Sequence record: OK272487.1
DNA length: 48,988 nucleotides
Origin: Escherichia phage JLBYU09
Reading direction: 5' to 3' (one strand)
Positions within the stretch are counted from its first letter, which is position 1. Every line of letters starts with the position of its first letter. This document shows positions 44,735-45,839 of the stretch, piece by piece. The translations under genes and the position numbers were made by a program. Under the pieces are notes generated by a model, which did not search any database, was not told the origin of the DNA, and was given only the letters and a program-made list of their open reading frames with translations.

Positions 44735-44950
44735 ATGAAAGATTTTTTAAACGCTGCAACTTCCGGCACTGGCGGCGCGTCAATCACTGGCGCGGTAACT
44801 GGTCAAACAACTATTGCAATAGCCAGCTTCGTTTTGATGGCTGCATTTGGTATGTGGGGCGCTTATCTTCGCTGGCGTGATAGTAAGGCGCTACGTAACG
44901 CGCTTGAATGCGGTGATATTAAGAAAGCTATTGAGATCAGAGGTAAATAA
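44735..44950 (+). CDS. holin
   Basis: 71 aa; transmembrane segment [20 protein letters not shown] with charged C-terminus; immediately upstream of the endolysin. Confidence 0.65.
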
Positions 44951-45438
44951 TGAGTATAAAACAAAGAGTGACCGCTGCGGCTTTTGGCGTTGCTCTTGCT
45001 CTTACTTCTCCATTGCTGGAGGAAATAGAAGGAGTAAAATATAAGCCGTACAAAGATATTGCTGGAATATGGACGGTTTGCGCCGGAATAACTGGACCTG
45101 ACGTAATACCAGGTAAAACGTACACACAGAGAGAGTGCGATGCGCTACTGGCAAAGCATATCAAGATCGCAAAGGATGAAGTTGATAAGCGCGTGAAGGT
45201 TGATATTCCTGATACAATGCGCGCGGCAATGTATTCATTCACATACAATGCTGGCACTGGTGCTTTTAGAAATTCAACCATGCTTAAGCTGATTAATAAC
45301 GGTCGTTATATGGAAGCGTGCGATCAGTTATGGCGATGGACAAAATACACCAATCCAAAAACAGGAAAGAAAGAAACGTCTAAAGGACTGCGAAACCGCC
45401 GCGCTGTGGAATTTAAATATTGCATTAAGGATCTGTAA
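44950..45438 (+). CDS. endolysin, lysozyme-like with N-terminal signal-anchor (SAR-type)
   Basis: 162 aa; hydrophobic N-terminus [17 protein letters not shown]; GH24-like E...D...T triad region [22 protein letters not shown]. Confidence 0.7.
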
Positions 45439-45440
45439 TT

Positions 45441-45839
45441 ATGAGAAAGTTATCAATAATCGCAATCGCTGTTATTTTGTCTGGATGTTCAAGCGTTATG
45501 CCACTGACCGGATTAATCGGTAGTAAGCCGGAAATCACAGCACAGGCAGGAGCGGAGAACGTAAAGCAGACCGTTGGCGTTACCGCAAAGCAGGACACCA
45601 GCACAAAACAGGAAACTACAATAAATGAATCTGCGGTTGATAAGGTGGACAATTCCAGCAAGAAGGATTTTACTACGTCAACCATTCAGGCTAACACCAT
45701 CAAGGCTGATAAAATCCAGGTCGTGCAAGGTGGGCAAAGGAAGTGGTACGATCCTATAATCTATTGCGCGGCAATTTTTAGTGGTCTTTTGTCAATGCTT
45801 TACTTTTCCTACCGCAAAGGCAACAAAAAGGAGGCTTAA
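45441..45839 (+). CDS. unimolecular spanin (lipoprotein with C-terminal TMD)
   Basis: 132 aa; lipobox LSGC and C-terminal TMD IIYCAAIFSGLLSMLYFSY; matches the recalled T1 gp11 architecture. Confidence 0.65.
   Translation: MRKLSIIAIAVILSGCSSVMPLTGLIGSKPEITAQAGAENVKQTVGVTAKQDTSTKQETTINESAVDKVDNSSKKDFTTSTIQANTIKADKIQVVQGGQRKWYDPIIYCAAIFSGLLSMLYFSYRKGNKKEA

Follow-up and report, generated by a model that had tools for sequence, protein, structure and literature searches.

Lysis genes of T1 and their counterparts in JLBYU09

The lysis system closest to the locus described here is that of phage T1, in which genes 13, 12 and 11 encode, in this order, a holin of 71 residues, an endolysin of 162 residues and a spanin of 133 residues. 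The product of gene 11 is the prototype of the unimolecular spanins (u-spanins) and complements lambda RzRz1 (PMC6139136). In lambda, disruption of the outer membrane is the last step of lysis and is the job of the Rz/Rz1 pair, the outer-membrane lipoprotein and the inner-membrane transmembrane (TM) helix being split over two proteins. Phage 21 also carries a two-component Rz/Rz1 spanin, and its endolysin R21 is the paradigm of the class II signal-anchor-release (SAR) endolysins (preprint 10.64898/2026.09.09.750462). A survey of 522 Drexlerviridae genomes found a block consisting of an exonuclease, a holin, an endolysin and a spanin gene in 508 of them (PMC13164509).

We analysed such a block in Escherichia phage JLBYU09, on a stretch of 48,988 nucleotides (record OK272487.1, hereafter the window). 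The initial annotation of this DNA had proposed a cassette of three genes encoding a holin, an endolysin and a 132-residue protein, and the three open reading frames were all recovered on the + strand with unchanged boundaries (Table 1). Each of them matched a PHROG family, namely holin (PHROG 2877, E = 9.6e-36), endolysin (E = 4e-56) and Rz-like spanin (PHROG 1804, E = 2.5e-47), and the endolysin further matched the Pfam family Phage_lysozyme (PF00959, E = 7e-38), so that these reading frames are not due to chance. The genes had also been described as tightly coupled by a stop/start overlap and a 3-nt gap. The overlap is present, the holin stop codon and the endolysin start codon sharing one base in the sequence TAATG, whereas the gap that separates the endolysin stop codon from the spanin gene, the last of the cassette, is of 2 nt (45439-45440).

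Table 1. Features of the JLBYU09 lysis locus, numbered from the first base of the window
Feature	Position	Strand	Remarks
DNA-repair exonuclease gene	43470-44588		upstream neighbour of the holin gene; PHROG 704, E = 2e-151
Intrinsic terminator	44632-44661	+	stem-loop 44632-44654 and seven-T run 44655-44661; 3' of the exonuclease gene
Shine-Dalgarno sequence AGGAG	44722-44726	+	8 nt 5' of the holin ATG; read from the sequence
Holin gene	44735-44950	+	71 aa
Endolysin gene	44950-45438	+	162 aa
Putative SAR segment of the endolysin	44968-45018	+	residues 7-23; 17 uncharged residues, no cysteine
Catalytic triad of the endolysin	45028-45075	+	E27-x8-D36-x5-T42; E27, D36 and T42 invariant in 52 homologues
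Spanin gene	45441-45839	+	132 aa
Lipoprotein signal peptide of the spanin	45441-45488	+	basic n-region, hydrophobic h-region, lipobox LSGC with Cys16
C-terminal TM helix of the spanin	45753-45812	+	residues 105-124; 20 uncharged residues, then basic tail RKGNKKEA
Bidirectional intrinsic terminator	45827-45849	both	overlaps the spanin stop codon, between convergent genes

The JLBYU09 genes occur in the same order as those of T1 and encode proteins of 71, 162 and 132 residues that are 59%, 65% and 48% identical to gp13, gp12 and gp11, respectively. The spanin and gp11 have in common the LSGC lipobox, the blocks TAQxGAENxKQ and STIQANT, the residues WYDP ahead of the C-terminal helix and the terminal residues KKEA. 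The surroundings of the cassette are comparable as well: in both phages a DNA-repair exonuclease gene and a terminator lie upstream and a second terminator lies downstream, the terminator annotated after T1 gene 16 being the equivalent of that at 44632-44661. Two differences should be noted. The endolysin and spanin genes overlap in T1 whereas they are separated in JLBYU09, and T1 carries, between the exonuclease and holin genes, an HNH endonuclease gene and a small SH3-domain gene that are both absent from JLBYU09. The SH3 gene has been reported in only 188 of 522 Drexlerviridae, mostly of other subfamilies (PMC13164509), and its absence from JLBYU09 fits this distribution.

The cassette is bordered on both sides by hairpin terminators. 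As proposed in the initial annotation, a terminator and an A/T-rich region precede the holin gene: the upstream hairpin and its T-run have a predicted folding energy of -14.6 kcal/mol (z = -3.62; none of 200 shuffled sequences was as stable), and the 146-bp spacer between the exonuclease and holin genes has a GC content of about 0.29-0.30, compared with about 0.45 in the genes. The downstream hairpin has a 9-bp stem, with energies of -14.7 kcal/mol on the + strand and -16.1 kcal/mol on the - strand (z = -3.5 and -3.8, respectively), and on either strand a T-rich run comes after it. In addition to the Shine-Dalgarno sequence of the holin gene, the purine-rich, Shine-Dalgarno-like motifs AGAGG and AAGGA precede the endolysin and spanin start codons, respectively. 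A promoter scan returned 7 sites where 4.2 were expected; the sole intergenic one, TTGACT-18-AATCAT (44707-44736), extends into the start codon of the holin gene, and no promoter is claimed.

Over bases 44600-45900, the window matches Escherichia phage JLBYU41 (OK272479.1; Drexlerviridae, Tempevirinae, Hanrivervirus) at 100% identity and some thirty further Hanrivervirus genomes at 92-98%. The three genes are annotated as holin, endolysin and RzlA in OK272479.1, and in related records the third gene is labelled RzlA, Rz-like spanin or u-spanin, or in some cases only "lipoprotein". When 35 related viral contigs and T1 were examined together, the endolysin-spanin order was kept in all 36 loci and the holin gene was also present in 35 of them, the exception being a contig (L032) whose end lies 128 nt 5' of the endolysin gene. 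The spanin protein was found by tblastn in 1142 phage records, and the cassette of phage pSf-1 is 93.5% identical in DNA sequence to that of JLBYU09. Gene order, homology, motifs and conservation are established for this locus. Because all testable features agree, we assign it to the T1 lysis cassettes, and it is very probably the late lysis operon of a T1-like siphophage, encoding a holin, a SAR-type endolysin and a u-spanin. This reading, already put forward in the initial annotation, fits both the homology to T1 gp13, gp12 and gp11 and the literature on the family, in which T1-type cassettes are described as comprising a pinholin, a SAR endolysin and a u-spanin. The cassette is one that was already known, as a GenBank-annotated member of the T1 family, and its biology is the textbook biology of T1.

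The holin and its mode of triggering

Residues 25-45 of the holin form a clear TM helix (mean hydropathy 1.62). They are preceded by a segment, residues 7-23, that is 88% Gly, Ala, Ser or Thr and has a mean Kyte-Doolittle hydropathy of 0.56. The C-terminal tail bears a net charge of +4 and, according to the positive-inside rule, the C-terminus is therefore predicted to be cytoplasmic. In size and hydropathy pattern the protein is comparable to S21, the holin of phage 21, but the two are not related in sequence. The S21 reference used here was checked against the phage 21 record and agrees with it at 100% identity; BLASTP of the JLBYU09 holin against S21-68 gave no alignment at E <= 100. Unlike in S21, no dual-start antiholin motif was found in the JLBYU09 holin. 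None of the Pfam holin families was matched, the sole Pfam match of the protein being to DUF3262 and below threshold (20.1 bits for a cut-off of 27).

The initial annotation had taken the SAR endolysin to imply pinholin-type triggering. S21-type pinholins are defined by small holes, of about 2 nm, that depolarise the membrane while retaining a cytoplasmic endolysin. The implication is too strong for a holin that lacks sequence similarity to S21. SAR endolysins require only that the membrane be depolarised, and holins that form large holes supply this too. Depolarisation by any holin frees a SAR endolysin. It is possible, though we consider it doubtful, that the JLBYU09 protein is a holin with one TM helix, or a large-hole holin, which is merely paired with a SAR endolysin. 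In addition to the failure of BLASTP to relate it to S21-68, such a reading would account for the marginal character of residues 7-23 as a TM helix, given their composition and low hydropathy, and for the description of the T1 holin in its GenBank record, which mentions a "single transmembrane domain". U-spanins, moreover, accompany SAR as well as canonical endolysins (PMC6139136), and no hole-size experiment on the T1 holin was found in the literature searched. On the other hand, the hydropathy of residues 7-23 equals that of the first TM domain of S21 (0.52), which is experimentally established as a SAR-type domain, and the combination of 71 residues, a charged C-terminal tail and an R21-type endolysin as partner is the phage 21 arrangement. 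Two TM segments and a class II pinholin have been proposed in the TLS paper, and the T1-family holins are classed as pinholins in the Young-lab spanin survey (PMC6139136) and in later papers. "Putative pinholin", a label based on composition, is a reasonable one for the JLBYU09 holin.

A more speculative proposal, which we regard as unlikely, has two separate parts: T1-type holins (PHROG 2877) would constitute a distinct class, with a single genuine TM helix and an N-terminal segment, rich in Gly, Ser and Thr, in the periplasm, and the membrane anchors of the spanins would have been swapped as modules among close relatives. If true, such an exchange of anchors would hint that the anchor is co-adapted to a further membrane component.

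The endolysin and its N-terminal segment

The best sequence matches of the endolysin in the PDB are full-length R21 (3HDE, E = 8e-42) and RrrD of DLP12 (4ZPU, E = 7e-41). Both alignments start at residue 3 of the JLBYU09 protein and thus cover its N-terminal segment. An AF2 model of the endolysin was obtained with a pLDDT of 87, residues 1-11 being below 50. The predicted fold is closest to 4ZPU and 3HDE, over 162 columns, with truncated R21 (3HDF) and the P1 endolysin Lyz (1XJT) ranking lower, and the structural alignment with R21 has 47% identity. In predicted fold, compared with 3HDE and 4ZPU, in catalytic triad and in its match to PF00959, the protein fits the glycoside hydrolase family 24 lysozymes. 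The triad is shared with R21 and has the spacing E-x8-D/C-x5-T named for class II SAR endolysins (preprint 10.64898/2026.09.09.750462).

The weakly hydrophobic N-terminal segment is another feature common to the two enzymes. Gly, Ala, Ser and Thr make up 53% of residues 7-23, compared with 62% in R21, and across 52 homologues the corresponding run is of 15-20 residues with a median Gly/Ala/Ser/Thr fraction of 0.50. Within it, A15 is invariant and P21 is found in 45 of the 52 proteins. As in R21, the segment is devoid of cysteine, which fits a class II SAR endolysin. The JLBYU09 protein differs from R21 by a shorter hydrophobic stretch (17 residues vs 24) and by a linker with six residues fewer before the catalytic glutamate, which places Glu27 only four residues from the putative membrane segment. 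This proximity would plausibly keep the tethered enzyme inactive. A SAR mechanism has been argued for the Drexlerviridae homologue 57_3Lys, with which lysis is azide-sensitive (preprint 10.64898/2026.09.09.750462); this lends indirect support to Sec-dependent export, tethering and release upon depolarisation. The N-terminus of 57_3Lys is identical to that encoded at one of the related loci (L034), whose endolysin is 49% identical to that of JLBYU09.

We considered whether the N-terminus might instead be an ordinary cleavable Sec signal peptide, in which case the lysozyme would be soluble in the periplasm rather than tethered and released. The uncharged stretch is indeed merely 17 residues long and follows the basic residues K4 and R6, and SignalP 6 reportedly calls the N-terminus of a homologue a signal peptide (preprint 10.64898/2026.09.09.750462). 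A scan of the 52 homologues with the simple -3/-1 rule left a candidate cleavage site after A17: A15-L16-A17 satisfies the rule and residue 17 is small in 36 of the proteins. In the other 16, however, this position is occupied by Met, Val, Leu or Thr, and the next conserved small-x-small site precedes Pro21. A proline placed after such a site blocks signal peptidase I. The predicted structure also argues against processing, as a single helix runs from residue 14 to 27, into the catalytic Glu27, and cleavage at 17 would truncate it. Moreover, the N-terminus aligns with the SAR segment that is retained in R21 in 3HDE, a freely secreted active muramidase would burst the host before assembly was complete, and the endolysins are described as SAR endolysins, by prediction only, in the T1, TLS and KanT1 literature. 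A cleavable signal peptide is, in our judgement, very unlikely. Taken together, these comparisons support the assignment of the protein as an R21-type (class II) SAR muramidase homologous to T1 gp12. The initial proposal of a SAR-type endolysin is thus upheld with regard to the homology to R21 and RrrD from residue 3 onward and to the weakly hydrophobic segment, while retention of the N-terminus is predicted from these same features.

The spanin and the proposed course of lysis

The third protein had been proposed to combine a lipobox with a C-terminal TM helix, and both elements are present. Across 47 homologues, no variation was seen at G15 and C16, and a lipobox was found in all 32 distinct relatives, in the form LSGC in 28 of them. 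The predicted lipidated Cys16 is followed by Ser at positions +2 and +3, without Asp, which is compatible with sorting of the protein to the outer membrane. At the other end, residues 105-124 have a mean hydropathy of 1.51, and an uncharged TM stretch of 17-24 residues is found at the C-terminus of all 32 related spanins. The only other cysteine, C109, lies within this helix. Periplasmic cysteines are absent from all 32 relatives, and u-spanins have been reported to be without them throughout (PMC6139136).

The predicted periplasmic domain comprises residues 17-104, that is 88 residues, or about 29 nm if fully extended. Given the dimensions of the envelope, this length suffices to cross the periplasm. 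The AF2 monomer model, computed from an alignment of 47 sequences, is poor (pLDDT 54, pTM 0.20). Only the signal helix and a helix spanning residues 105-127, the best-supported part (pLDDT 69-83), are defined in it, and residues 14-104 appear as coil in this low-confidence model, with pLDDT values mostly below 50. For the T1 family of u-spanins, the periplasmic domain has been predicted to consist of a short helix and, after it, several beta strands (PMC6139136). No match was obtained when the spanin was searched against Pfam. Among the relatives, some spanins have periplasmic domains up to 92% identical and unrelated C-terminal helices, and the reverse is also seen.

Membership of the T1 u-spanin family has been defined by an identity of 40% or more that extends over no less than 40% of the periplasmic domain (PMC6139136). 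The periplasmic domain of the JLBYU09 spanin is 47.7% identical to that of gp11 (42 of 88 residues) over its full length, which places it in this family, of which pSf-1 is a named member in the published list of 28 (Kongari et al. 2018, PMC6139136). The JLBYU09 spanin differs from lambda Rz/Rz1, and from the pair of phage 21, in that the lipoprotein and the TM helix are joined in one polypeptide. A coiled-coil i-spanin is lacking, the periplasmic domain contains no cysteine, and sequence similarity to the lambda proteins could not be detected. U-spanins pair with both SAR and canonical endolysins (PMC6139136).

A two-component spanin was also sought. A lipoprotein-signal scan of every open reading frame of the window revealed no Rz1-like o-spanin; once out-of-frame and very short frames are set aside, it returned only the gene for Cor (31563-31790) and a small membrane-protein frame (8270-8449). 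Likewise, no lipobox reading frame was found embedded in the spanin gene. With neither an embedded frame nor another o-spanin candidate, a hidden Rz/Rz1 pair is ruled out in the window, and together with the homology to gp11 this agrees with the initial choice of a unimolecular over a two-component architecture. The third gene product could also be taken for an outer-membrane lipoprotein, Cor-like or otherwise, with no role in lysis, as its label of "lipoprotein" in some GenBank records and a weak PHROG match of residues 1-57 to "Cor superinfection exclusion protein" (E = 2.9e-5) might suggest. This reading can be dismissed with near certainty, since the match to the spanin family is far better (2.5e-47), the true Cor gene, the sole other clear lipoprotein gene of the window, lies elsewhere (PHROG 1119, E = 1.8e-27), Cor is devoid of the C-terminal TM helix, and gp11, to which the protein is homologous, complements lambda RzRz1 (PMC6139136).

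From this u-spanin, the SAR-type endolysin and the holin, we infer the following membrane topologies and order of events for the JLBYU09 locus. During late expression, the endolysin would be exported by Sec and remain anchored in the inner membrane through its uncleaved N-terminal segment, held inactive as in R21 by the closeness of Glu27 to this segment. The spanin would be lipidated at Cys16 and sent to the outer membrane, Ser at +2 providing no retention signal, while its C-terminal helix would stay in the inner membrane and its periplasmic domain would thread the murein. In the meantime the holin would build up in the inner membrane, its C-terminus facing the cytoplasm, and at a programmed time it would trigger and collapse the proton-motive force, probably via small pinholes. 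Upon depolarisation, the N-terminal segment of the endolysin would exit the bilayer, and the enzyme would refold and degrade the murein. With this mesh removed, the spanins would be free to move laterally and to collapse, and would thereby disrupt the outer membrane, the probable means being its fusion with the inner membrane.

Several of these steps have been shown for homologues. Complementation of lambda RzRz1 by gp11 (PMC6139136) demonstrates spanin action for the T1 protein, and by homology the JLBYU09 spanin is likened to it and to Rz/Rz1 in function. R21 acts as a SAR endolysin, and lysis by a Drexlerviridae homologue is azide-sensitive (preprint 10.64898/2026.09.09.750462).

Beyond correct annotation, the significance of the locus is small; pSf-1, a near-identical relative, already figures in the published catalogue of u-spanins. 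As a lysis module the cassette is conserved in the Drexlerviridae, and its prototype, T1 gp11, defined the unimolecular spanin class.

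Relationship to the JLBYU41 record and ambiguous bases

The window was compared with the record of Escherichia phage JLBYU41 (OK272479.1; Hanrivervirus, Drexlerviridae). Positions 41600-48899 correspond to 43958-51258 of that record, with one gap and with mismatches at N positions only. The end of the window (48919-48988) extends about 70 bases past the end of the linear JLBYU41 record. The window thus represents a near-identical phage in a differently permuted or independent assembly. The 126 N are distributed in nine short patches interspersed with real bases across 1481-45957. 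These patches look like masking or dropout rather than biology; the counterpart in JLBYU41 of the open reading frame interrupted by one of them is intact.

Features within and around the lysis cassette and the Cor gene
Feature	Coordinates	Strand	Remarks
Cor superinfection-exclusion lipoprotein gene	31563-31790	-	PHROG 1119, E = 1.8e-27
Exonuclease-holin gene spacer	44589-44734		146 bp only
Spanin C-terminal region	45753-45839		Compared with L007, L011, P0164, P0168 and P0174 (related loci or spanin homologues)
ORF, PHROG 10679, unknown function	45867-46088	-	Interrupted by N patch
N patch nearest the cassette	45918-45957		Just downstream of cassette, within the above ORF

Gene content and host labels of the lysis cassette

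According to a recent description, lysis modules of Drexlerviridae are commonly accompanied by a standalone gene encoding an SH3 domain (DUF7244) as an accessory (PMC13164509). No such gene is present between the exonuclease and holin genes of the window, and this spacer also lacks an HNH gene, whereas phage T1 has one. The match of the holin (44735-44947) to Pfam DUF3262 (20.1 bits, E = 7.5e-4) lies below the 27-bit cut-off and is probably compositional.

About 20 records titled 'Campylobacter phage' carry the lysis cassette at approximately 96% identity to that of the window, and a record titled 'Streptococcus phage MBBL140' encodes a T1-type unimolecular spanin. In a Gram-positive host, an outer-membrane spanin would make no sense. 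The likely origin of such record titles is contamination by coliphages or an incorrect host assignment.

Membrane anchors of the spanin

The spanin N-terminus weakly matches Cor because of the signal-peptide region of the latter. Some relatives are 85-92% identical to the spanin over residues 1-105, yet their C-terminal helix is quite different (PVIICVVVLIVLICLYW versus PIIYCAAIFSGLLSMLYFSY). Conversely, the P0174 spanin possesses the same C-terminal helix as that of the window and a different signal peptide. Judged from these comparisons, the membrane anchors of the spanin look modular, which suggests recombination inside the spanin gene.
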